IMG/VR virus record: IMGVR_UViG_2718218128_000007
Location: 1-14,524 of that record
Reading direction: 5' to 3' (one strand)
DNA length: 14,524 nt
DNA from: a virus
Taxonomy: Duplodnaviria > Heunggongvirae > Uroviricota > Caudoviricetes
The notes beneath the pieces are model-generated. The model worked only from the letters and a program-made list of their open reading frames with translations, had not been told where the DNA came from and did not search any database. Shown here piece by piece: positions 1-14,524 of the stretch (its first letter is position 1; every line of letters starts with the position of its first letter). Position numbers and translations under genes: made by a program.

Positions 1-669
1 TTACGATGCCATCCCCTTTTTGGTTAAAGGTTTCGCAGGATTCCCAAACACAGTCACTCCAGCTGGCACACTTTTTGTAACGACGGCTCCCATTCCTATA
101 ACTGCCCCATCCCCAATGATAATTGGTCTTTTAGGAGAACCCTGTTTTATAACTGCACCCGCCCCAACATATACGTGATCACCAATAACAACGCTTCCAT
201 TACATTTAACACCCGGAGCGAAGGTAACATAGTCCCCTATAATGCAATCATGGGCAACATATGAATATATATTCGCATGGAAAAACTTACCTATTTTTGC
301 ATCCGCTGTGACACACGTAAAAGGGCATAGGATGGCACTATCATGAATATCACTAGATTCATATTGAATACTGTGATGTCCTTTAATGGTAAAGGGGACA
401 GCACCAGCCGCCATTAACATTGAGGCTATCCTTTCTCTAACTTTACTATCACCAATAGCGACATTAAAGAACTTGTTATCATAATCAGATTCACAGAACT
501 CCTGTGGAGATAGAACATCAATTCCAGAAATTTGCTTACTTTCAGAATTCTCAACAATAAATACTAATTTATAACTATCATGAAACGGTAGTTCATCGAA
601 CATGAACTGAACTAAAGGTGCAACTTCACGACCAAAACCACCTGCACCAACAATCCCATAGATATCCAT
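1..669 (-). CDS. NeuD/PglD-family hexapeptide-repeat (left-handed beta-helix) sugar O-acyltransferase; likely accessory/moron gene
   Basis: ORF 1..690 (-). N-terminal Rossmann-like segment MDIYGIVGAGGFGREV is followed by repeated hexapeptide-like [LIV]-G-x-x-x-x units (IGDYVTFAPGVKCNGSVVIGDHVYVGAGAVI ... IGDGAVIGMGAVV). The track start at 690 is a TTG; I prefer the in-frame ATG at 669, which has a GAGGG Shine-Dalgarno a few nt upstream. Stop codon is at 1..3, so the gene is complete. Confidence 0.7.
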   Translation of the reverse strand: MDIYGIVGAGGFGREVAPLVQFMFDELPFHDSYKLVFIVENSESKQISGIDVLSPQEFCESDYDNKFFNVAIGDSKVRERIASMLMAAGAVPFTIKGHHSIQYESSDIHDSAILCPFTCVTADAKIGKFFHANIYSYVAHDCIIGDYVTFAPGVKCNGSVVIGDHVYVGAGAVIKQGSPKRPIIIGDGAVIGMGAVVTKSVPAGVTVFGNPAKPLTKKGMAS

Positions 670-904
670 AACACCCTCAGACATTATCAATTTTAGATAT
701 AGTATGTCCTTGGCGTAGATTTCTCAAGAGTGTAAACAAGGGGGGAGACTTATGCTGGAAACTTGGGAAAAAGCGACTGTTATTTTGTTCAGTAAACACC
801 ATGTAAACTCACTGCCAACTGGCAACCATTCAATACTCACACCATCGAACGGACTTCAACTGACCGCGACCTGTTTCTTCATTCTCGGATAGCGGCATTC
901 ATCT

Positions 905-1492
905 TTATGCTGGTTTTGCTGGCCAAGTGATGTCAGGTGCTTTCGATGTATCGACCTCCTGAAGTGCTTTAATGTACCAAATCCACGCAATCAGACTCGT
1001 CTTATCTTCGTCGCTAATGATTCCCAATTGCAGTTCAGTTGTCCAGAAACTGATCTTTTCCTTAGCTTTTACCAATAGAATAGCTTTTTGCTTATCAGCC
1101 ACTTCAACATCAGCTGCATACTTAGCATTTGGGTCTGATACCCACTTTTTCCCATCCCATTTCTGGAACGGATCAGAAGGAGCAATATTGGTATAGCCAT
1201 TATTAATAGGACCAATATAGTCGATAGTATGAGGCATACCGTCAGTAGTTGAATAAACTGTCTTACCTCGATGGTCTTCTTTCAAGACCCATCCTCCATT
1301 TTCGAATACAGCAACCTTTCCTGTTAGTTCATTACCCGGATCAATATCGGTAGAATTACCCGGCATACTGACGCCAATATTAATATATTCGTCTGACCAT
1401 CCTATATATTCAAAAGTTACTATATCGTAGTAATAGCAGCGGATTTCACCCGGTTCCGTTGCCAGTCCATTTTCATCAAAAACAGGTTTCAT
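905..1492 (-). CDS. tfa: phage tail fiber assembly protein (Tfa chaperone)
   Basis: 195-aa ORF with blocks typical of enterobacterial Tfa proteins (EDHRGKTVY, QKWDGKKWV, C-terminal VDTSKAPDITWPAKPA). Its ATG overlaps the stop of the upstream tail fiber ORF (TAATG on the minus strand), implying translational coupling. Confidence 0.8.
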   Translation of the reverse strand: MKPVFDENGLATEPGEIRCYYYDIVTFEYIGWSDEYINIGVSMPGNSTDIDPGNELTGKVAVFENGGWVLKEDHRGKTVYSTTDGMPHTIDYIGPINNGYTNIAPSDPFQKWDGKKWVSDPNAKYAADVEVADKQKAILLVKAKEKISFWTTELQLGIISDEDKTSLIAWIWYIKALQEVDTSKAPDITWPAKPA

Positions 1493-2250
1493 TATTTAGC
1501 CCTTACTAAAAAGTTAAATGTGATATTGCGGGGACGTGTTTCGTTGCCTCCAGGATTTTGGAATGCAGGTAAAGCTCCCCCTATCGGCTGACTGATTCCG
1601 TTGGTATATAAAGGAGCTGCATTCGATATTGTACCAAACACTACATTGCTACCATTTCCGCTTGTCCCTAAAAATTTATGCTCATGCATTTTGAAGTCAT
1701 CTGCTTGTGCAGAAAGTAAGGTTCGCCCTCTATCCACCCCGCGCCCATCATCCCAGATACGAATAAAATCACCCCGTGCGTCAGGTAATGCTAGCGCCGG
1801 AAACACTTTCGCCAGCACAGGGTAATCAGTGGCAGAGAATTTCGCGCCGTTGAACTTCAAAAACACCATACTGGACCAACTGTCGATTACAGTATTTGGC
1901 ATTGCGGCGGACGGCCAGAAGAACGGAACGCCAATAGCTGGAGCACCTTCTCCCAAACCAAGATTTTCGAGAGCCGTTTTCACCGTGCCATCCGATTTGA
2001 TATCACCAAACGGATTCTTGCGGCTTAACAGCAGAGCACGAAGCGCGGTAAGCAACTGGTCGTTTCGCCCCTTCTCCAGGCTGGCACCGGATGCCTCCAC
2101 CACGCTGCAGAGTTCTTCCTGCAACATATCAAAGTAGTCATCATCCAGATCGGTGGCAGGTGTGCCAGTCTGGGGGTTACCACGGGTAAAACCGTTCTTA
2201 CCCGCGCCGAACTTATCCTTCTGCGCGGTTTTCGTGTCTATACGATGCAT
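1492..2250 (-). CDS. phage tail fiber protein (distal receptor-binding type), possibly a truncated remnant
   Basis: 252-aa ORF immediately upstream of and coupled to tfa; Gly/Asn/Ser-rich C-terminal half ending [11 protein letters not shown], as in Stf-like fibers. It is short for a lambdoid side tail fiber and is preceded by an in-frame TAA that separates it from the terminase-like ORF. Confidence 0.55.
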
Positions 2251-2253
2251 GGA

Positions 2254-2874
2254 TTACTCCGGATATTTAAAAATTACGTAGGTATGCGACGGGCAGAGTT
2301 TGTTAAGCACACATTCGACAACGGTGTCGCCCCAGATACGCAGCGCGGAATCACAGGGATCGCCACATGTCATCCAGGTGGTGTTTGTGGCGGCTGGCAT
2401 GTTGACCTGCCAGTAATACCGCCATTCCGGCGCATTCACCGCGTCAGAACAGGCCGATGAGCAGGTGAACGTGCTTTTGTCGTATCGCGTGATGGTAGCC
2501 TCCTGTTCTTTTTTGGCGGTCAGCTCCGGATTTTTGACCATACCGCCCATTGCACCGGTGATGGTGTTGCCCTGTCTGGCAATATTTTTCACGGCACGTC
2601 GCCAGAACTCGTAGGCCACGCACCACCGCTCAAGCACCGCGAGGTCAGTCACGCACAGCAGGCCCTGACCGCAGAGTTCTTTGGTTGTCAGTTGCCACAT
2701 GATCGTAGCGAGAGGGAGATCTTCTTCAGCGAACCACTCCGGTGGCTCAACACCTTTGATGGGCGTAAAAACAGGTTCATCTTTGTTCAGGGCTCGCTTG
2801 CCGGGGTTTCCGGCCAGCGCCTTGCGCGCCGTTGGCTTGGGGCGACGCCCGGAACGCCCCGCCGTTCCAGCCAT
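2254..2874 (-). CDS. terminase small subunit, P27 family (N-terminal about 135 aa), with an atypical Cys/Trp-rich C-terminal tail; probable deletion remnant
   Basis: N-terminus [36 protein letters not shown] matches the conserved P27-family TerS start. The track start at 2883 is GTG; an ATG at 2874 is preceded by an AGGAG Shine-Dalgarno. The last about 70 aa ([40 protein letters not shown]...) do not resemble a TerS C-terminus. Confidence 0.55.
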
Positions 2875-2913
2875 ATGCGGCACTCCTGGTTAAATTTCAT
2901 TTTTCGCGGGTAT

Positions 2914-2972
2914 AAAAAAACGATGGGGCGGGCAGTCCTGAAGGCGTCAGGTCACAGGGATTTGACCCGCCC
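2914..2972 (-). other. GC-rich nested inverted repeat between HNH and TerS genes; candidate cos/packaging-site structure or intrinsic terminator
   Basis: GGGCGGG (2926..2932) pairs with CCCGCCC (2966..2972), enclosing an inner hairpin CCTGA-aggcg-TCAGG (2937..2951). On the minus strand the outer stem is followed after 5 nt by a T7 run (complement of A7 at 2914..2920). Confidence 0.3.
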
Positions 2973-2998
2973 TCCCCTCTGGCAGTGGAAACTGGTTC

Positions 2999-3349
2999 TT
3001 ACTTCAGCCGTTCACGGGCCGTCTTCGCCTTATGACACGGCCAGCACAGACTCTGCAGATTACAGTCGGCATCAGTGCCGCCATGCGCTTTAGGGATGAT
3101 GTGGTCAACGGTTTTCGCTTCACGCACCACACCGGCACGCAGACATAACTGACATAAACCTTTGTCACGTTTCAGCACACGCGCGCGGATAGCGTCCCAC
3201 TTCGAACCGTAGCCGCGCTGATGACGGGACTGGCCTGGCTTGTATTGCTTCCAGCCTTCGCTTTTGTGGCTTTCACAATAGCCTGACGAGTCAGTGGTGG
3301 TATGGCGGCAGCCGCGAACGCGGCAGGCTTTTGGGGTTCGTGGGGGCAT
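2999..3349 (-). CDS. HNH endonuclease (phage terminase-associated type)
   Basis: Cys-rich HNH signature CRVRGCRHTT...CESH ... VDHIIPKAHGGTDADCNLQSLCWPCHKAK. It sits directly upstream of TerS, the standard HNH-terS arrangement in cos-type phages. I prefer the ATG at 3349 (MPPRT..., GGAG Shine-Dalgarno) over the track start at 3418, because a terminator-like hairpin lies between the two. Confidence 0.75.
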   Translation of the reverse strand: MPPRTPKACRVRGCRHTTTDSSGYCESHKSEGWKQYKPGQSRHQRGYGSKWDAIRARVLKRDKGLCQLCLRAGVVREAKTVDHIIPKAHGGTDADCNLQSLCWPCHKAKTARERLK

Positions 3350-3360
3350 GCTGGCTCCAA

Positions 3361-3383
3361 TAAAAAGCCCCGCGACGCGAGGC
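3361..3383 (-). terminator. putative rho-independent terminator after the small membrane protein gene
   Basis: Minus-strand RNA GCCUCG-CGUCG-CGGGGC (6-bp stem including one G-U pair) followed by UUUUUAUU, about 30 nt after the stop at 3415. Confidence 0.4.
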
Positions 3384-3414
3384 TTAGACAGAAAAAACAC
3401 CGGATAAGATCTGG

Positions 3415-3618
3415 TCATTCTTCCTTTTTAATAATGACTTCTCGAGGGCGCAATTGTTGGATAGCACGACAAATACAATATGGAATAACTGCCCATGCTA
3501 CTCCCATTGCTGCACCTGCAGCCTGTTGTGGAGCACTCTGAGCACCGAAAACCCCGAGGATTCCTTCAATAAATCCAATAGCACTACACAAAAGACTGAT
3601 GACCCAGAGAATTTTCAT
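3415..3618 (-). CDS. small hydrophobic membrane protein (two predicted transmembrane segments), function unknown
   Basis: 67-aa ORF MKILWVISLLCSAIGFIEGILGVFGA...AMGVAWAVIPYCICRAI with a charged C-terminal tail. A strong AAGGAG Shine-Dalgarno lies about 9 nt upstream of the ATG, and the region is AT-rich. Confidence 0.45.
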   Translation of the reverse strand: MKILWVISLLCSAIGFIEGILGVFGAQSAPQQAAGAAMGVAWAVIPYCICRAIQQLRPREVIIKKEE

Positions 3619-3735
3619 AAACCTAAACTCCTTTTAAATAAACACTTTACTAGGATAATTCTCATAAAATGTTAGTAAAGTATTTTCAGGAAAATAGCGT
3701 ATCACTGCCTATTTTTGACACTGATGCTGGGATAA

Positions 3736-4110
3736 TTATTCCGGTCGCTGGAGTTGCTCATGATGATACAGAGCGAGAATCAGGTCATAAGACCCTTGCC
3801 TGTCTTTGTAACCAGTTTTATCAACCAATTCAGCTTTACTGATTCCGGGTAAATCAAGAATCAGATTCGCAACTTCAATTGCCCTTTGGTACAACTTACC
3901 GCCCTTTTTCTCCCCATGCAGTGGTTTTACATTCTTGAGGTAACCGCTATCCGCCAGGGCGAGAAATGTTGCCCTTGGGCATATCTTCTTTCTTGACGAT
4001 TCGCTTTCTGTAACCTCTGCGACAGCTGCATCCCATGCATCACGAGGAGGCATTGAGCTATCAGCAACCAAATGATAAGCGATTAAAGCGGCGCGCGCGT
4101 ATTGAGACAT
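3736..4110 (-). CDS. hypothetical protein (accessory gene downstream of Rz)
   Basis: ORF 3736..4161 (-). The track start is a GTG that overlaps the end of Rz; the in-frame ATG at 4110 (MSQYARAALIAYHL...) is more plausible. I recognise no family from the sequence. Confidence 0.4.
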   Translation of the reverse strand: MSQYARAALIAYHLVADSSMPPRDAWDAAVAEVTESESSRKKICPRATFLALADSGYLKNVKPLHGEKKGGKLYQRAIEVANLILDLPGISKAELVDKTGYKDRQGSYDLILALYHHEQLQRPE

Positions 4111-4148
4111 AATGCATCCATATACAAAAATCTCATGATAATACTTTT

Positions 4149-4592
4149 CTAATATGAACACTGTGATCTCACATACTCTTGCAGGCCATTCAATTGGTTA
4201 GTTATGGTTTCGATGCGCTCTCTGAGAACGAAATAATCTCGTTGAGCGGTGTCAGTAAGTCTGGGGCTGGAAGCATCATCCACGCCGGAGGCGGCGGTGG
4301 TTTTATGCATGTCCGGACAGACTGCTTTGACGTGCAGCCACTTACGACCAGCAGAAACATCAGCACGAAGACTTTCGATAGTCGCGTTAGCATCAGCAAG
4401 CTCCTTTGTATATCTGGCATCGAGTTCAGCTACATTACTTTGACGTTTCTGTATGTCAGCGATAATGGATGCGGCCTTATCGCGCTGCTTTTTGTAGGTG
4501 ATGGCGTTATCACGGTAATGATTAACCGCCCATGACAGGCAGACGATGATGCAGATAACCAGAACGGAGATAATCGCGGTGACTCTGCTCAT
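4149..4592 (-). CDS. Rz: Rz i-spanin (inner-membrane spanin), lambda-like
   Basis: 147 aa; N-terminus [34 protein letters not shown] is near-identical to lambda Rz as I recall it. Its start overlaps the R stop (ATGA), and it carries the embedded +1-frame Rz1. Confidence 0.9.
4202..4393 (-). CDS. Rz1: Rz1 o-spanin (outer-membrane lipoprotein) embedded out of frame within Rz
   Basis: ORF 4202..4420 (-) lies entirely inside Rz in another frame. It has a signal peptide plus lipobox ([20 protein letters not shown]) followed by TSKQSV...[10 protein letters not shown], matching the lambda Rz1 pattern. Start is placed at the ATG at 4393. Confidence 0.8.
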
Positions 4593-5065
4593 ACCTCAAT
4601 CTCTCTGACCGTTCCGCCTGCTTCTTTGAATTTTGCAATCAGGCTGTCAGTCTTATGCTCGAACTGACCATAACCAGCGCCAGGCAATGAGGCCCAGATA
4701 TTACTGCAACGGTCGATTGCCTGACGGATGTCACCGCGATCAATCATTAGTAAAGCGCCACGCTCCTTAATCTGCTGCAATGCAACAGCATCCTGGCTTT
4801 TAGGAGAGAAGTCTGTCAGCCCTAACTGCTTGCGGTAAGCATCCCACCAGCGTGAAAGAAGTTGATAACGGCCTGCGGCTGTTGATTTGAGTTTCGGGTT
4901 TAGCGTGACAAGTTTTCGAGGGTGATCGGAGTAATCAGTGAAGAGTTCGCCACCGACAATAACGTCATAACCGTGGTTACGTGTCGGTTGTCGCCCGTTA
5001 TCCGTTCCTTCTGACCAGGCCACCATATCAAGGAAAGCTTTACGCTGAGGATTTAGTACCTGCAT
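4589..5065 (-). CDS. R: endolysin R, lambda-type lytic transglycosylase
   Basis: 158 aa, [45 protein letters not shown]..., near-identical to lambda R as I recall it. AAGGAG Shine-Dalgarno upstream of the ATG. Confidence 0.9.
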
Positions 5066-5068
5066 AAA

Positions 5069-5404
5069 TTACTCCTTCGAGCTACCAAATTTGTTACCGA
5101 TTACTCGCATTGCAGCCCCACGAATAGCATCGACACCGATCAGCCCAACGCCGCCACCAATGGCAACAGAAAGAGATTTAGGCCATCCGACATACTCAAG
5201 AGCGGATGCAAAAGTCAGCGTCAGAGCACCACAGAGCAAAATCTCGAGCGTTTTTCGCTTCCAGCCACCACCACCGCCAAAATAGGCAATGCGCAAGCCA
5301 GCCATAACGATCGACATAATCACTGCGCCCAGCGGTGTGTCTCCACGCCACCAGCTCTGAAACAACTCCAGCCAGTCCGGCCAGGTATTTGGGTTATGAG
5401 GCAT
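5069..5404 (-). CDS. putative holin
   Basis: 111-aa ORF immediately upstream of R, with hydrophobic segments (GAVIMSIVMAGLRIAYF, LEILLCGALTLTFASAL, LSVAIGGGVGLIGV) and a GAGGTGAGAG Shine-Dalgarno. It does not resemble lambda S, so the call rests on position and hydropathy. Confidence 0.55.
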   Translation of the reverse strand: MPHNPNTWPDWLELFQSWWRGDTPLGAVIMSIVMAGLRIAYFGGGGGWKRKTLEILLCGALTLTFASALEYVGWPKSLSVAIGGGVGLIGVDAIRGAAMRVIGNKFGSSKE

Positions 5405-5545
5405 TTGTAGTTATCTCTCACCTCGCTGATACAGCAGGTGCAAATTGAGGAAACATCATGTTCCGCAAATCAGAAGCGGAAACGTCAAAGAAGCCGAGTC
5501 AAAGGATAACTGCGGGATAAACCAAGCCCAACGAACAACCAGGCC

Positions 5546-5578
5546 CAGAAACGACAAAACCCGCTCATCGGCGGGTTT
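5546..5578 (-). terminator. rho-independent terminator upstream of the holin (tR'-like position)
   Basis: Perfect 8-bp stem AAACCCGC (5557..5564) / GCGGGTTT (5571..5578) with a 6-nt loop; on the minus strand it is followed by UUUUGUCGUUUCU. It lies between the moron start and the holin start. Confidence 0.5.
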
Positions 5579-5670
5579 AAGCTGTGTGGCGAAGTAACCA
5601 CTCTTAACACATTACATGATAAAATGCGGACCGCGTTAGTAATATTTTTCTCATATATTGGGTTCACTAC

Positions 5671-6417
5671 ATGCGACATAATTTTTCTAAAGACACTATA
5701 AAAAAATTAGCAGAGCGGGCAGCATTCATTTGTTCAAACCCTTCATGCCCTAGATTGACCATTGGCCCATCAATTGATGGCAATAAATCAATCAAGACAG
5801 GAGTTGCTGCTCACATATGTGCAGCATCTCCTGATGGCCCACGCTATGACATGTCACAATCAGAAACAGAAAGGAAGTCAATTAACAATGGCATATGGCT
5901 GTGTGCTACTTGTTCTGTATTAATAGATAAGAATCAGGGGCTAGACTATCCGGCACCTGTATTAAGAAAATGGAAAAAAGATCATGAAAGCCTTATAAGC
6001 TCCTGTCTTGAAGGTTCGATTAATATTACCTTCGATGCTTTGAAATATATTCAACAGCATGATGAAAGAAATCTGGCAAAAAAGATTATAAATGAATTGG
6101 ATGATAAAGGGGCTTTGTTCGTAGAATATCATCTTGAAAACCCCTGTTTTGTTGCCGAATCACTCAAAGAGTTAAGAACATGTTTGACCTCTTTGCTTTC
6201 TCAAATCCCAGATGAATCACCTCTATTTATCGTTTGCAAGTCAATTCGAGAAGCATGCCGTTATTATATGAACAACACTTCTAAAGACGCAGGGATTAAA
6301 GAGTTAGAATTTTCGTTGGGAGCGGTCAGAAAAATCGTAGGTATCAACGTTAAAAGAATATCAGAAACCTACGGGGTTAAACCTAGCCCACAATTATCTA
6401 CCATAATGCCAGATTAA
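5671..6417 (+). CDS. AT-rich moron encoding a 248-aa protein with an N-terminal HNH-like (His-Me finger type) Cys/His motif and an uncharacterised C-terminal domain
   Basis: Long ORF on the strand opposite to all flanking genes. Motif: CSNPSCPRLT ... GVAAHICAASPDGPRY ... ERKSINNGIWLCATCSVLIDKN, i.e. CxxxxC ... AHI ... N ... CxxC, with Ser where the final His is usual. Sampled 60-nt stretches are roughly one-third GC, against roughly half or more in neighbouring genes. A terminator follows it. Confidence 0.65.
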   Translation: MRHNFSKDTIKKLAERAAFICSNPSCPRLTIGPSIDGNKSIKTGVAAHICAASPDGPRYDMSQSETERKSINNGIWLCATCSVLIDKNQGLDYPAPVLRKWKKDHESLISSCLEGSINITFDALKYIQQHDERNLAKKIINELDDKGALFVEYHLENPCFVAESLKELRTCLTSLLSQIPDESPLFIVCKSIREACRYYMNNTSKDAGIKELEFSLGAVRKIVGINVKRISETYGVKPSPQLSTIMPD

Positions 6418-6426
6418 ATCTGTTAC

Positions 6427-6469
6427 GCAGCAACAAAGTTAAACTCTATGTTGCTGCCTTAATTTTATT
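6427..6469 (+). terminator. rho-independent terminator of the moron gene
   Basis: Perfect 9-bp stem GCAGCAACA (6427..6435) / TGTTGCTGC (6449..6457) with a 13-nt loop, followed by CTTAATTTTATT on the plus strand. It sits between the moron stop (6417) and the convergent Q stop (6468). Confidence 0.55.
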
Positions 6470-6830
6470 ACTCCATTTCTAAACGAATATCCAGCATCGA
6501 GAGACAACCATCTATAAACCCTTCAGCCAACTGTATCTCTATACGTATCAATTTCTCATCTTTTTTGTATGCTTTTGCTATCTTCCTTTTCGAGATGCCA
6601 TACAGGTAATGAGCCACAATCAGAGAGTGCTCATACGGTTTTCTCTTCTTAAGAAGAGCAAGACAACCTTCAATAATTAATGCATCACTATCTGAACAAG
6701 CCTGACGTGTTTTGCTTGTATAGGGAAGAAGCCCTTTAAACCCAGCAGCTATAGGAGAATAGTCTACTCCAGAACTATCACTCGCCGCCCATGCTCCCCA
6801 ACGATCCAGAACCATCTGAATATCACGCAT
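6468..6830 (-). CDS. Q: late-gene antitermination protein Q (Phage_antitermQ type, as in phage 21 / DLP12-like elements)
   Basis: MRDIQMVLDRWGAWAA...IAAGFKGLL...ALIIEGCLALLKK...LAEGFIDGCLSMLDIRLEME matches my recollection of the small Q-type antiterminators. The track start at 6845 is TTG; the ATG at 6830 has a GGAGAAA Shine-Dalgarno. Operon position is upstream of the lysis genes. Confidence 0.75.
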   Translation of the reverse strand: MRDIQMVLDRWGAWAASDSSGVDYSPIAAGFKGLLPYTSKTRQACSDSDALIIEGCLALLKKRKPYEHSLIVAHYLYGISKRKIAKAYKKDEKLIRIEIQLAEGFIDGCLSMLDIRLEME

Positions 6831-6847
6831 CAACTTTCTCCACAAAA

Positions 6848-7171
6848 TCAGGCCAGCACACCAGTTGCCAGCGCACGATCGATAAAACGAAATATCAGCT
6901 CCAGTTGGGAGCCATACTTCTCTTCAAATGCCACGGTACCCTGGCGACGCGCCTTACGCGTTAACCAGCCTTCTGCTTCCAGCCGTGCGATAGCCGTTCT
7001 GACGGTACTCATCCCCGCGCCAATCTGACGGGCAATGGTTTCAATTGATGGCCAGCACACACCTTCGTCATTACTGAAATCAGCCAGGCGGGCCATAATT
7101 GCCACGCTGGATAATTTCATGCCTGACGCAGCGCAACCATCCCATACATAGCCGGTTAATTTAGTGCTCAT
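6848..7171 (-). CDS. winged-helix/HTH DNA-binding protein, possibly the N-terminal remnant of a replication-initiator-like protein
   Basis: 107 aa with an HTH-like segment LSSVAIMARLADFSNDEGVCWPSIETIARQIGAGMSTVRTAIARLEAEGWL. Its start overlaps the end of the upstream frameshifted gene and its stop abuts the Q start. Confidence 0.45.
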   Translation of the reverse strand: MSTKLTGYVWDGCAASGMKLSSVAIMARLADFSNDEGVCWPSIETIARQIGAGMSTVRTAIARLEAEGWLTRKARRQGTVAFEEKYGSQLELIFRFIDRALATGVLA

Positions 7172-8085: not shown

Positions 8086-8275
8086 CGTTCTGTGGTTAAA
8101 AATTGAAAGTGTTCTGCTAATCTTTCGGATAGATAATTGGCTGGCGTTCTCTCTGGTACACCTGGGGACAAAAAGAAACCGGAGAATGGCAGTGGACATT
8201 TCAGGTCGGGGACCTTGAAAACGTCAATATCACTCACTGGGCAGTAATGCCAAAAGCACCGGAGGCTGGAGCATA

Positions 8276-9292: not shown

Positions 9293-12200
9293 TCACACGC
9301 TGCGCCTTCGAGAATATTCATTTAATCGCTGATAACGAACATCTTGCTCCAGTTGTGGAGCAGCTTGAACAATTTGAAGCAAGCATTGCCCCAACTCTCG
9401 AGGCCCCCAGTGTTGGTCGGCAATCACGGCATTCAGCAGGGATAGAGCGTCCGCAGGATATCGGCTGCAAATATCTGATTTTAGCAAAAGGCGAACGTCG
9501 TAGCTAAGGTGTTCGAGCGGTTGCAGCCAGTCCTGCACCACTGCCAAAGCCGCCGGAAATTCACCTCGGGCAGCAATCACCATACGAGTCAACGATTCGG
9601 ATATGCGTGGGGTGGCCAAGTTGCGGGACTTTGGCCAAACCTGTTGCCAAAATGGCTGGACACGATTTTTCCAATACTCCTCGCGCTGATCGCCCGCACC
9701 TTCAAGTGCCTGGTATAACGCCTGCGCGGCTACCTCCAGACCTTCTTGTGGAAGAGCACTAATTGCCGTTCGGAACTCCTCCACGGTATATCCCTCGGTA
9801 GGGCCCAGAGCTGCATAAGTCAGGAAAGTAGCGAATTGCTGCCGGTGCTCGCCAAGATCAGAATAGTGATTGGCGCTCTCCAAAAAATCTGACTTGAAAG
9901 CTATCAGCAACGGTTCATACAGGCGTGGCGACCAGAGGAAGCCTTCCCACACAGCTTGTGCTTCGACGGGATTACTCCAAGCAAACAAGGGCAATAGATA
10001 CTGTTCGGTCCAAGGTCGATCTACGCGAAAAAATGCGATCAGCCGCGACCCCAGCAACACCCGACCATGGCGGAATAGCTCTATCTGTACATTACACAAT
10101 TTGGTGAAAAGTGTTTTCAATTCAACAGGAAGCAAATCATTGTCATTCGGGTTCTGTTTGAACCATAGGGTGATCAGTGATTGCGTGACATGCCCAATGG
10201 GATGATTGATCGCCGTAGAAACAGGATCATAGGTCTCAATTCCGTTTCGAATGGTGCTAGACTCTGGGCTTGTTTCTATCATCAGAACCCGACGACAAAG
10301 GGCCAGTAGAATCTCCTCGTGGCAGAGGATGGGCTTCGAAGCCTCCTCCATCCACCAAGTGACAGCGTGGGAAATCTCCTGAAGTACTGCGTCAGGCATG
10401 TCAAGCACCAACGGTGCGGCGTACCGCCACGAACGCAAAATCATCCCTGGTTCAGCCCAAGTCTGCAGAGCTTCACGCCACCGACCAACAGGCCACACAT
10501 CATCTTGTGATAGTTTACGTAACGCATACAGACTGTGAAAAAAGCGCGTACGGCAAACATCACTCCAAGTGTCCTCATAGAAAGGCAGTCTTTCTGGCAT
10601 AGGCTTTGCGAGCCATTGCACTAATTCCTGCCACTTACGGGGCGCAATGTCGACATCTATACTCTCCTCGAAGCCTGGATCACCGGTTCCGCTCATCCAG
10701 TGAGAGAATTCATCACGCTCGTTGGTTGCCAGTTGCCATTTTGGGTATGCTGTGGATATTTCCGTCAAACGTGTAGCCGCAGACTCTCCCAAAACAAGGC
10801 CCGCTCCCCTGAGCTTCGCTAGACACAACCAGACGGAATGAGCCACCAAATAATGCCACCTGTCTGCTTCCAAATTATCCTCGTACATCTCGCGCGGAGG
10901 CCCTGCCAAGATAGCAGTTTCCAGACGCTCTTGTGCAATTCCTGTCAGATGTCGTCCCTGCAAAACAAACAGTCTGAATACCTCTCGCCCAGTATCCGTG
11001 GCCCACAACCACCATGAACCGTCCTCTAACAACCAATTAACCCACCGCTCAGGTGGTATGCAGTTGTCTTGGCTTGCGGAAAACAGTGCCAGACGTTTGA
11101 AGGTGGGATATGGCAACTCAAACCAATTCTGAGCAATGCGCGTGGCCTGATCGCTGTCTTTGGCTCGAACGGCTAACCATGAATCCCGAAGTAATTCAAT
11201 CAGGCTCACCCAATCGCGGAACCCCCGGTTCTGCCAGTGCGGAGTGATGGACGGCAAATCCCAATGCGAGCGGTCGTGACGATCGTCGGACTCTCCCAAC
11301 TCCCGCAACAAGTCCAGTGCATCACGCAACAACTGCTGAAAATCTTCCAACAGGTATGGCAAGGACGATTTCCATGACTCGTCAGCAAGGTCGAACAGGG
11401 TTGAACGTACGTAATCAGCAGTCAGCACCAGCTCCCAATCCACCAATTGCTTGATTCGCAAGGGCTCATCAGTGCTGCTCGAATCGTCTTCACTATAGCG
11501 AAACGGCCGCCTCAACATAACCTTGGGAGAAAGCAACTCGCGTAACTCCAAACGCAATGTAGTCGTCAAGCCTTCATTCTTTAAGCGGTTTTGCCAACGA
11601 TACAAATCCAGGTTCTGCAATGGCGATTTCACACGACCACTAAGCAGAAGCCGCCATAAAGTAGACATAGGTGGACCAGGAATAGCCAGGGGGGAATGCA
11701 AGAGAATTTCATCTAACTCAGAAGTCTTACGCTCCCGCATCAGTGCTGCTAAGCGATCTAGTTCGCTCTCAATCAGAAACATCCAACGGTCGTGTATTTG
11801 TCCGCCGCGTTCAGCAATCCATATGATCAACCTAGGGTCGCCCAGATAACGAACTAGCCAACGGGCTATATGGGACATTACGTCATCCCATTTGCTAGCA
11901 CTGACACATCCAGAAACCAGCGACATCTGCGGGGCTAGCTCATAGGGCGCAGGACGCTGAACCAGACTGAATCGGAGTTTCGGGTCAATTTCGACATGCG
12001 GAGATACACAAAAGCGTGGCAGATCGCTGTATTTAAATCGTTCGTCCGAGAAAGCTTTCAATAACCAATCCAGCGGCGGTGCAGGATTGAGTTCCGCAAA
12101 ACATTTTGCTGGTAAACCTGACTTATCAGATAAGGCCCACATCATCCGACCAACGAAATCGTCCTGCCGAGTGCTATCCTGCGGGCGGGCCAGAGCATGT

Positions 12201-13120
12201 TTGACGACAATGGCTTCTTTGCCTTGTATACCATCGCGATAAATATTTGCCCAAGCACGCAATGTATGGTGCATCGCTGAATGATCATTGGAGTCCGCCG
12301 GTACGGTGTAAAGGATGGGGGTGACCCCCTTGGCCTCCCACTCGATAGATTTCCGGTGCTCCTGCCCCGGCTCACATTCTCCTAGTGCCCATACTTGCGG
12401 CGTGACTTCACCGAGCCTCCGATCTGCTGCCAGTGCGTCCATCATATAGCGTAGCACCGGGTCGTTGATGCTGTAGCCCACGAAGCAGACCACGTAGTTA
12501 CGGAACAAGTCACTTACAAAACGGGCAGCCCAGCGTTCCGTGAGATAGGCTAAGCCAAAGTCTCCACTAGTGACAACCAGACGATTCAGAGCAGTATCGT
12601 CTGTCTTTTCCGGTAACAACCCATGCAGGTAGACTATTCCGTCCCAGCGACTATTTTTCGGAATTGGCAGCATCGGCGCTACATAAGCCTGAAACGCTTG
12701 GGCCGTGCGTTTAGCTGCCACATGAAATAAGCGGTCAAAGTTGGTAGTAACTAACCGAAGGGCACCATCGCGACTACGCGCCAAACGCAACAGCGCCATC
12801 TGAGTATCAGTTGCGCCTCTATAGTGAAGTTTTGGCTTAAGGGCTTGTTCCAGCGCGCGACGGACGGCTATACGCTGTCCCGGTAGGCGCCGTTCCAACA
12901 AATCCAATGTGGCGTCGAACTGACCGCGCTTGAAGGCCTCACACTCAATTTCTGAAAGTGTTGTTCCGTTCAACTGGTAAATCCGCTTTACCAATCCCTT
13001 GAAACCTGGCAAACCAGCAGGGTAGGAAATGCCTGCCCCGCAGAAGAACACCACGCGGCCTTCCTCGTGCGCCTGCAAAAGTTCATCCGGAATATCAGGG
13101 CCGTTGGTGATAAATTGCAT
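9293..13120 (-). CDS. large single-gene SIR2-domain protein (defence-associated sirtuin-like): N-terminal SIR2 NADase-type domain plus about 1000-aa Trp-rich helical C-terminal region; candidate anti-phage/abortive-infection effector
   Basis: 1275-aa uninterrupted ORF with a strong Shine-Dalgarno (AGGAGGAAAAGGA) before the ATG at 13120. N-terminal motifs of the prokaryotic SIR2 family: VVFFCGAGISYPAGLPGF (NAD-binding GAGIS-type), LVTTNFDRLF (Asn 127), IVYLHGLL (His 165, 38 residues after the Asn) and CFVGYSINDP. No Walker A/P-loop is visible. Located between the integrase and the xis-like gene. Confidence 0.8.
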   Translation of the reverse strand: MQFITNGPDIPDELLQAHEEGRVVFFCGAGISYPAGLPGFKGLVKRIYQLNGTTLSEIECEAFKRGQFDATLDLLERRLPGQRIAVRRALEQALKPKLHYRGATDTQMALLRLARSRDGALRLVTTNFDRLFHVAAKRTAQAFQAYVAPMLPIPKNSRWDGIVYLHGLLPEKTDDTALNRLVVTSGDFGLAYLTERWAARFVSDLFRNYVVCFVGYSINDPVLRYMMDALAADRRLGEVTPQVWALGECEPGQEHRKSIEWEAKGVTPILYTVPADSNDHSAMHHTLRAWANIYRDGIQGKEAIVVKHALARPQDSTRQDDFVGRMMWALSDKSGLPAKCFAELNPAPPLDWLLKAFSDERFKYSDLPRFCVSPHVEIDPKLRFSLVQRPAPYELAPQMSLVSGCVSASKWDDVMSHIARWLVRYLGDPRLIIWIAERGGQIHDRWMFLIESELDRLAALMRERKTSELDEILLHSPLAIPGPPMSTLWRLLLSGRVKSPLQNLDLYRWQNRLKNEGLTTTLRLELRELLSPKVMLRRPFRYSEDDSSSTDEPLRIKQLVDWELVLTADYVRSTLFDLADESWKSSLPYLLEDFQQLLRDALDLLRELGESDDRHDRSHWDLPSITPHWQNRGFRDWVSLIELLRDSWLAVRAKDSDQATRIAQNWFELPYPTFKRLALFSASQDNCIPPERWVNWLLEDGSWWLWATDTGREVFRLFVLQGRHLTGIAQERLETAILAGPPREMYEDNLEADRWHYLVAHSVWLCLAKLRGAGLVLGESAATRLTEISTAYPKWQLATNERDEFSHWMSGTGDPGFEESIDVDIAPRKWQELVQWLAKPMPERLPFYEDTWSDVCRTRFFHSLYALRKLSQDDVWPVGRWREALQTWAEPGMILRSWRYAAPLVLDMPDAVLQEISHAVTWWMEEASKPILCHEEILLALCRRVLMIETSPESSTIRNGIETYDPVSTAINHPIGHVTQSLITLWFKQNPNDNDLLPVELKTLFTKLCNVQIELFRHGRVLLGSRLIAFFRVDRPWTEQYLLPLFAWSNPVEAQAVWEGFLWSPRLYEPLLIAFKSDFLESANHYSDLGEHRQQFATFLTYAALGPTEGYTVEEFRTAISALPQEGLEVAAQALYQALEGAGDQREEYWKNRVQPFWQQVWPKSRNLATPRISESLTRMVIAARGEFPAALAVVQDWLQPLEHLSYDVRLLLKSDICSRYPADALSLLNAVIADQHWGPRELGQCLLQIVQAAPQLEQDVRYQRLNEYSRRRSV

Positions 13121-13306: not shown

Positions 13307-14524
13307 TCAGTTAGAGTCTGAGCAAGTAATTATCGATTCAATCCTCTCCCACCATGCCAAGTAAGCTTTACGCTGTTCTTCTAGATAATCGCTCTTATCA
13401 TAAACTTGCCATACCCCTGGCAGCTTATGACCAAGCATGATTTCTGCGATATGAGGCGCAGTAAGATCAGAAAAATTTGTTCGTGCTGTCCGTCTCAAGT
13501 CATGAAGAGACCAATGAGGGAATTGATACCCAAAACGCCGCCATGCGTATTGCATTAAATTGTAAGGTAGCGACTGCAAGGATGTCCGACCAACTGGTTC
13601 CCTGCTTCCTTCCTTAGTAAAAAGCATATCGGAACCGTTGTTCATAGAGATAACGTATTTTATAAGCTCTTCAACCGGTTCAATAATGGGCCGCTTTAGC
13701 GGTTCGTCTGTTATATCCCCTGTCTTATGTCGTTCTGGTGGTACAGTCCATATTTTATTAATGAAATCAAAATCGTCCACCTTGGCAGTAATTAGCTCTG
13801 AACTACGGCAACCAAAATGCAGCAATAGTTTAATGAAGGCCCGGTATTTAGGAACCATTCGAGAACCATCGATCGCAGCATAAAGGATTTTAATTTCATC
13901 ATGTGTCAGAAACCGTTTCTTCTGACCTTTACGGATATCCATATCTTTACCCGTGATATCCGACAGCGGGCGAGTTTCAATGAGCTTTCTCTTATACGCC
14001 CAGACATGGGCCTGCTTTGCGTTAATTAGCAATCGGTCTGCTATTGCTGGAGTCTTAGTGCTAAGAGGCTCCAGGACTTCTAACCAATCATGCAATGTAG
14101 CTGCATCGTGAGGGATATTCCCGATTTTAGAGAACAGGTGCAGCTCAAACGAGCGGAGTATCTGTTCAGAACCTTTTTTATTTTTTACACAATATGCTTC
14201 ATACCAAGCACGGATCACAGATTCTACCGTCATGGCTTCAGTAGCTTTACGTTTTTCTGCCAGCTTGACCAATCGTGGATTGCGGTTTGACTCGAGTTCA
14301 CCACGAAGACGGATAACTTCTTCTCTGGCCTCTTTTAGTCCAGTTGACGGGTAAGTTCCGATATCAAGACGCTCACCTTTCCCCGCCCACTGATAACGAT
14401 ATTGGAACACTACGCGACCTTTCGGTGATACTCTAACAGACAGACCATCACGATCGGATTTAACCAAAACCTTATCACGTTCCTTTCCAACGACTGAACG
14501 CAACCACGCATCAGACAGCGCCAT
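13307..14524 (-). CDS. int: tyrosine site-specific integrase (P4-like, with arm-type N-terminal domain)
   Basis: 405-aa ORF whose ATG is at the window edge (14522..14524). The N-terminus (MALSDAWLRSV...GLSVRVSPKGRVVFQYRYQWAGKGERLDIGTYP...LKEAREE) resembles P4-type integrase arm-binding domains. C-terminal catalytic-region motifs: HDLRRTARTNF and LGHKLPGVWQVYDKSDY (candidate tyrosine nucleophile). Confidence 0.85.
   Translation of the reverse strand: MALSDAWLRSVVGKERDKVLVKSDRDGLSVRVSPKGRVVFQYRYQWAGKGERLDIGTYPSTGLKEAREEVIRLRGELESNRNPRLVKLAEKRKATEAMTVESVIRAWYEAYCVKNKKGSEQILRSFELHLFSKIGNIPHDAATLHDWLEVLEPLSTKTPAIADRLLINAKQAHVWAYKRKLIETRPLSDITGKDMDIRKGQKKRFLTHDEIKILYAAIDGSRMVPKYRAFIKLLLHFGCRSSELITAKVDDFDFINKIWTVPPERHKTGDITDEPLKRPIIEPVEELIKYVISMNNGSDMLFTKEGSREPVGRTSLQSLPYNLMQYAWRRFGYQFPHWSLHDLRRTARTNFSDLTAPHIAEIMLGHKLPGVWQVYDKSDYLEEQRKAYLAWWERIESIITCSDSN

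Follow-up and report, generated by a model that had tools for sequence, protein, structure and literature searches.

A chimeric terS–ymfQ open reading frame as a probable deletion scar in a defective SfV/e14-like prophage of Escherichia coli

The 206-amino acid open reading frame (ORF) at positions 2254..2874 of the window, by which we mean the whole 14,524-nucleotide stretch of DNA that was analysed, is real and chimeric, with the small terminase TerS as its front and YmfQ as its back. We consider it very likely that this ORF amounts to a chimeric pseudogene, a scar left by a deletion within a defective SfV/e14-like prophage, and that it originated from a single deletion at the trinucleotide GAG; nothing that we found contradicts a deletion. 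The ORF lies on the minus strand, as do all of the genes surrounding it, and extends from an ATG at 2874 to a TAA at 2254..2256, with an alternative in-frame GTG at 2883. An intact prophage located at the chromosomal site of the window prophage is found in F8704-2 (E. coli O39:NM, NZ_CP050998.1, approximately 2,199,500-2,242,700), and the features discussed here are listed in Table 1.

Both parents of the ORF could be recognised. Pfam Terminase_4 (PF05119) matched residues 57-133 with 52.4 bits, compared with a cut-off of 24.7 bits, and covered profile positions 2-79 of 98, in agreement with the original prediction of a P27-type TerS N-terminus. About 135 residues had been assigned to TerS and the remaining 70 to a tail of different origin; the chimeric split holds, while the actual lengths are 125 and 81 residues. 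Residues 126-206 of the chimera are identical to residues 114-194 of the F8704-2 YmfQ, and they replace the C-terminal 39 residues (126-164, SEMSSTGAMLGLDPSSRQRLIGLAGKKKATNPFLKIIES) of the full-length TerS, which comprises 164 amino acids in this lineage. Against Pfam Phage_Mu_Gp48 (PF10076) the chimera scored 21.6 bits, below the gathering cut-off of 37.4 bits, at the C-terminal end of the profile (positions 109-149 of 150); the intact F8704-2 YmfQ scored 94.6 bits over profile positions 3-149. The tail had also been described as Cys/Trp-rich, and its content of these two residues is indeed 12.3% versus 5.6% in the TerS part, because the tail is the normal YmfQ C-terminus. Since the fusion is in frame with ymfQ, the ORF terminates at the genuine ymfQ stop. 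Megablast of window positions 1300..3500 divided the query in two as well, with 3500..2500 matching HNH endonuclease and P27-family terS genes, and 2509..1300 matching ymfQ, fibre and tfa genes.

Table 1. Coordinates of the chimeric ORF, its neighbours and the two further scars in the window.
Feature	Position	Strand	Remarks
Tail fibre assembly protein gene	905..1492	-	intact, 195 aa; Pfam Caudo_TAP 98.8 bits; so annotated in F8704-2
Short tail fibre gene	1492..2250	-	intact, 252 aa; protein identical to F8704-2 fibre; native 3-nt gap
'ymfQ	2254..2499	-	codons 114-194 plus native TAA stop in authentic frame; Mu-Gp48-like baseplate gene
Deletion breakpoint	2500..2502	-	3-bp microhomology GAG (plus strand CTC), common to terS codon 125 and ymfQ codon 113
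terS'	2500..2874	-	codons 1-125 of a 164-codon P27-family small terminase gene; identical to F8704-2 TerS
cos cohesive-end sequence TGCCCGCCCC	2925..2934	-	exact; between HNH stop and terS start
HNH endonuclease gene	2999..3418	-	intact; Pfam HNH 55.1 bits; annotated as HNH endonuclease in all relatives
Second scar	6848..7171, junction ~6936..6938	-	107-aa in-frame chimera; Pfam, BLAST and junction comparison
Third scar	8134..8135	.	4,115 bp absent relative to E600003 prophage; 2-bp microhomology (TA)
SIR2-domain protein gene	9293..13120	-	1,275 aa; annotated in relatives as anti-phage defence sirtuin Dsr1

The breakpoint was placed in a three-way DNA alignment that set the window against both parental sites of F8704-2. 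Base 2503 agrees with terS only and base 2499 with ymfQ only, so that the endpoints are mapped to the base; the comparison with intact prophages proposed earlier for tracing the tail and locating the deletion has in this way delivered both. F8704-2 is 100% identical to the window at 1..2502 and at 2500..3422, and 99.97% identical at 3420..6938, the two mismatches in the first BLAST block being an over-extension of the match across the junction. Between its two window matches, F8704-2 carries 16,228 bp that start with the last 39 terS codons, end with the first 113 ymfQ codons, and contain 22 complete genes, terL being the first and baseplate J the last. The front of this stretch encodes terL, ymfR, portal, HK97-type prohead protease, major capsid protein, and connector and closure proteins, and its back encodes tail terminator, sheath, tube, assembly chaperone, tape measure, DNA circularisation protein, and the baseplate proteins P, V, gp46 and J/gp47. 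The original prediction, in which terL, portal, protease, capsid and tail genes were noted as absent between terS and the fibre gene and a large internal deletion was proposed to have joined the packaging and fibre modules, is thus borne out by a relative with 100% identity on both sides.

No IS element and no recombination site was found at the terS'/'ymfQ junction. Short microhomology without such elements is a signature of illegitimate, RecA-independent deletion, and we infer a RecA-independent, microhomology-mediated mechanism, either slippage or joining. A single illegitimate-recombination event at the 3-bp GAG would have eliminated 16,228 bp, from terS codon 126 through ymfQ codon 113, and with them the TerS C-terminus, terL, ymfR, the portal, protease, major capsid, connector, sheath, tube and tape measure genes, and the baseplate genes up to gp47/J. 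The terS and ymfQ reading frames coincide by chance, as happens in one case out of three, and translation from the terS ATG would run on via the genuine YmfQ C-terminus to the ymfQ stop. The resulting chimera is presumably without function.

The junction had previously been placed at the TAA itself, because the ORF is followed by a single codon and then by the fibre gene in the same frame. This layout is present in the sequence as claimed, with the codon TCC at 2251..2253 after the TAA and the ATG of the 252-aa ORF at 2250..2248, but the breakpoint lies about 245 bp upstream of the TAA, inside the ORF, between terS codon 125 and ymfQ codon 114. The ymfQ stop is separated from the fibre start by an identical 3-nt gap in the intact F8704-2 prophage (6255/6259), in K-12 e14 (ymfQ 11998 / stfP 12002), in phage SfI (16927/16931) and in LH10-b-1 (5847/5851). 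The in-frame relation of the ORF to the fibre gene is therefore native and says nothing about the deletion. Programmed read-through, or a TerS-fibre fusion across the TAA, was considered and rejected, as the TAA-TCC-ATG spacing is native in intact and functional relatives. The fibre N-terminus, for which a check of authenticity had been proposed, proved genuine: residues 1 to approximately 103 are almost identical to K-12 StfP, while the C-terminal half diverges.

The remnant as a whole is arranged in the order integrase, Dsr1, ymfL-like gene, DUF4222, Q, holin, lysozyme, Rz, HNH, cos, terS', 'ymfQ, fibre, tfa, cargo, DinI and prfC, and it also retains a DUF551, a DUF6650 and a DUF6979 gene. 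Its gene content and order are homologous to those of SfV, SfI and e14, an integrase gene adjoins, and the site is chromosomal, between yjjG and prfC in E. coli. Relative to intact relatives, it lacks genes essential for virions, namely terL through baseplate J, the replication/nin block and the immunity region, as befits a defective prophage. The expectation that lysis, fibre and cargo genes would be retained was correct, with holin, lysozyme, Rz, fibre, tfa, Dsr1 and the downstream cargo all present. Dsr1 is a cargo gene adjoining the integrase gene (13307..14524), and a different gene occupies the same position in F8704-2. Further cargo is located downstream of tfa (window 1..690 on the minus strand and beyond; 12206..15664 in the longer contig L005) and comprises a PglD/NeuD-like hexapeptide acetyltransferase, a MaoC dehydratase and a 517-aa protein, a sigma-70 family factor according to RefSeq, followed by DinI and prfC; this set is conserved with F8704-2. 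In addition, the DUF6650 gene (248 aa, 5671..6417) is encoded on the opposite, plus strand between Q and holin, in a moron-like position, and a strong terminator-like hairpin is found after it at 5557..5578 on the minus strand.

Two more deletion scars were detected in the window. The 107-aa chimera at the second scar consists of the 5' quarter of an HTH_36 replication-initiator-like gene and the last ~90 nt (~30 residues) of a DUF968 gene, with Pfam HTH_36 at residues 23-70 and the end of the DUF968 profile at residues 77-104. The junction has a 2-bp microhomology, and 4,284 bp are absent relative to F8704-2, including the nin/replication genes yfdN, a methyltransferase gene, a LexA-like gene, rusA, a KilA-N gene and most of the DUF968 gene. 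At the third scar, yfdR, yfdQ, yfdP, ymfI, the LexA-family repressor gene ymfK, and the cro-like gene ymfT except for its last six codons are gone, and the divergent early promoter region was deleted as well. The comparator for this scar, the E600003 prophage, shares the integrase and Dsr1 with the window at approximately 96% identity. Consequently, the remnant has neither the repressor nor the early promoters while Q and the full lysis cassette are kept, and the loss of the early promoters along with the repressor offers a plausible reason why Q and lysis genes can be tolerated without a repressor. A promoter scan returned fewer consensus matches than shuffled sequence did, and carries no weight here. 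The remnant is probably transcriptionally silent after the loss of its immunity and promoter region.

These scars also bear on the earlier view of the element as a non-inducible remnant created by the head-tail deletion. The loss of virion production can be assigned to that deletion, whereas the loss of inducibility appears better explained by the second and third deletions, which affect the repressor/cro/promoter region and the replication genes. Judged from its gene content, the remnant is strongly predicted to be unable to produce infectious particles on induction. According to our hand estimate from the coordinates, it measures approximately 18 kb, about half of the SfV/SfI genome.

The packaging start region is better preserved. 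The 10-nt cos gap of SfI was determined experimentally as TGCCCGCCCC (PMC3636060), and the window contains exactly one match to it, compared with 0.01 expected by chance; the left end of SfI aligns directly after this sequence in the window. The HNH protein is the packaging partner of the terminase in the SfV/e14-like phage family, and for its gene the gene callers give a 116-aa start at 3349. The remnant therefore retains cos and HNH without a functional terminase.

The junction is not confined to the window. In total, 11 contigs encode exactly the same 206-aa protein. Seven of these loci were fetched, one from an NCBI assembly contig (131 kb, GCA_043370955.1) and six from separate sequencing runs assembled by Logan, and they represent seven different samples. 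Over the length shared with the window, six of them match it at 100%, and the 131-kb contig, which contains the whole remnant followed by prfC, osmY, ytjA, yjjU and yjjV, differs by one mismatch in 12.9 kb. In contrast to these copies, megablast against 5,426 complete E. coli genomes found none that spans the junction and no place covering at least 80% of the query (window 1300..3500), and none of 37 matches in phage records spans it either. The exact junction 41-mer had no match in the GTDB species-representative genomes, which is uninformative as this set comprises only one genome per species. Diverged relatives sharing the remnant architecture were likewise not found in the 5,426 E. coli genomes, the GTDB representatives or the phage records. 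An intact relative in which the full ORF precedes a 252-aa fibre gene, which would have spoken for a natural compact arrangement, was not among the hits; only copies of the remnant, identical or nearly so, were recovered. The junction copies point to one recent event in one lineage.

Several other readings of the junction were weighed against the deletion. Two contigs could have been joined by the assembler at a short repeat, and it is true that merely 3 bp are shared at the junction and that the window stems from an unknown assembly; the identical or near-identical junction in seven samples argues against such an artefact and effectively refutes it, so that we attach practically no probability to it. 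It is also conceivable that the chimera is a selected neo-gene, in which a TerS shortened by its 39 C-terminal residues serves as a decoy or dominant-negative factor against the cos packaging of superinfecting SfV/e14-like phages. The ORF is intact and in frame, the native terS start and upstream sequence are kept, it adjoins an intact HNH gene and an exact cos sequence, and the remnant bears the defence gene Dsr1 besides. Chance alone, however, would put one deletion in three in frame, and the family contains other, independent deletions that either fuse out of frame or have their break in terL; the remnant has also lost the early promoters on which Q-dependent late transcription would rely. 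Furthermore, the near-identity of all copies found indicates one recent event that left no time for visible selection, and taken together we regard a neo-gene as very unlikely. Selection for in-frame junctions in general, through translational coupling or avoidance of polarity, was tried as a separate idea and rejected: four of the seven junctions compared are in frame (both gene-fusing scars of the window, MEI7BO1-21 terL'::'stfP and K-12 YmfN) and three are out of frame (GF31, LH10-b-1 and K-12 beeE/jayE), which against an expectation of one third gives a binomial P of ~0.17 (calculated by hand) and is not significant.

The element might, on the other hand, be naturally compact, that is, a helper-packaged phage satellite or PICI-like island equipped with cos, HNH, a TerS variant and a fibre. 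The retention of cos, HNH and integrase and the reduced size would suit such an element, but all three junctions lie inside ORFs of full-length prophages that are otherwise 97-100% identical and show microhomologies of 2-3 bp. A satellite would moreover be expected to bring its own replication module (primase/rep plus ori) and a helper-responsive master repressor, neither of which was found among the window ORFs; replication genes and repressor are absent, and the only replication-type ORF in the window is the truncated HTH_36::DUF968 chimera. The full lysis cassette is atypical for satellites, and the seven fetched loci, identical or nearly so, are not accompanied by diverged relatives of the same architecture. 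We therefore find a satellite highly improbable, and the deletion scar in a defective prophage remains the preferred reading.

Even as a deletion remnant, the element keeps cos, HNH, integrase and cargo at both ends, and could therefore still be mobilised. As a passenger, for example, a ~36-kb dimer could be packaged by a superinfecting SfV/e14-type helper supplying TerS, TerL and capsids. We see a slight chance that the remnant is still mobilisable by a helper phage in this manner, or that the truncated TerS::YmfQ protein interferes with or modulates helper packaging; if true, the window would represent a prophage in transition towards a cos-type satellite.

For annotation purposes, the name small terminase is inappropriate for the 206-aa ORF, and we recommend recording the element as a defective prophage. 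The window offers a base-resolved view of stepwise prophage decay: virion genes, replication genes and the immunity/promoter region were lost in three deletions, which span 4-16 kb and have 2-3 bp of microhomology at each junction, while defence and other cargo at both ends are kept. For each scar an intact comparator of 96-100% identity is available, F8704-2 for the first two and E600003 for the third. Alongside e14 and the three other alleles, the window shows that loss of the head-tail block is a recurring event in the SfV/e14 phage family. This adds one more allele to a process that is recurrent and already well understood, namely routine prophage decay closely analogous to that of e14, and the finding leaves the current understanding unchanged.

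Among the known relatives, F8704-2 is 99.97-100% identical to the window from Q through lysis, HNH, cos and terS, and from ymfQ through fibre, tfa and the acetyltransferase gene at the window edge, and it is 99.86% identical to the longer contig L005 through the remaining cargo genes to prfC. It differs in possessing the 16.2-kb head-tail module, the 4.3-kb nin/replication block and the immunity region, in an integrase that is 95.6% identical to that of the window, in the gene that replaces Dsr1, and in an IS3-family insertion between the DUF6979 and HNH genes (24451..25664 of its locus L004) which the window does not have. In view of the IS3 insertion and the differing integrase-proximal part, F8704-2 is a sister and not a literal ancestor, and it serves as a parent proxy only from the HTH/DUF4222 genes and Q rightwards, as the left part (integrase, Dsr1) is ~95% identical or different.

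The Shigella serotype-converting myoviruses SfV, SfI and SfIV matched both query halves at 94-96% DNA identity and share the same cos 10-mer. They belong to the SfV/e14-like phage type, with an HK97-type head, a Mu-type contractile tail, and cos packaging with HNH, TerS and TerL, and their late genes follow the order of the inferred parent: cos, terS, terL, ymfR-like, portal, protease, capsid, then sheath, tube, tape measure, Mu-like baseplate, YmfQ homologue and short fibre. SfI, a plaque-forming myovirus with cos packaging that is close to SfV and e14 (PMC3636060), has terS at 51..545, the ymfQ homologue at 16343..16927 and the fibre gene from 16931, nearly the same distance as in F8704-2. 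Unlike the window remnant, these phages are complete and inducible, carry gtr O-antigen modification genes as cargo and integrate at thrW (PMC3636060).

Deletions of the same module with other endpoints have occurred independently in GF31, LH10-b-1, MEI7BO1-21 and K-12 e14. The E. coli elements GF31, LH10-b-1 and MEI7BO1-21 have HNH and terS within 1-2 kb of the fibre gene and the structural module deleted, but in contrast to the window their terS is intact, and the upstream break falls in terL after 219, 798 and 387 nt, respectively. The downstream break is located just before the fibre gene in GF31, in the last 84 nt of ymfQ in LH10-b-1, and inside stfP in MEI7BO1-21. In MEI7BO1-21 we also noted an uninterrupted 422-aa ORF (4968..6236 of locus L014) running from the terL start via the stfP fragment to the stop of a 'glycine-rich domain-containing protein' gene, another in-frame deletion chimera that the annotation splits into three features.

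The nearest parallel is e14, which was compared via the K-12 RefSeq annotation. It resides at the icd locus of K-12 and contains homologues of ymfK, ymfT, ymfL, ymfR, ymfQ, stfP and tfaP, as found in the phage family of the window. Like the window remnant, e14 is defective through internal deletions that left chimeric ORFs, and has kept fibre, Tfa and cargo; its YmfN is annotated as 'chimeric replication protein/phage terminase', and the junction between beeE (portal 5') and jayE (baseplate J 3') removes the head and tail genes. The endpoints differ, being rep to terL and portal to baseplate J in e14, and terS to ymfQ, HTH-rep to DUF968 and the immunity region in the window. Whereas e14 keeps repressor, cro and xis and is devoid of Q, lysis genes, HNH and terS, the reverse applies to the window remnant, and Lit and McrA are the cargo of e14 at icd, compared with Dsr1 and the acetyltransferase/dehydratase set at the yjjG/prfC site of the window.
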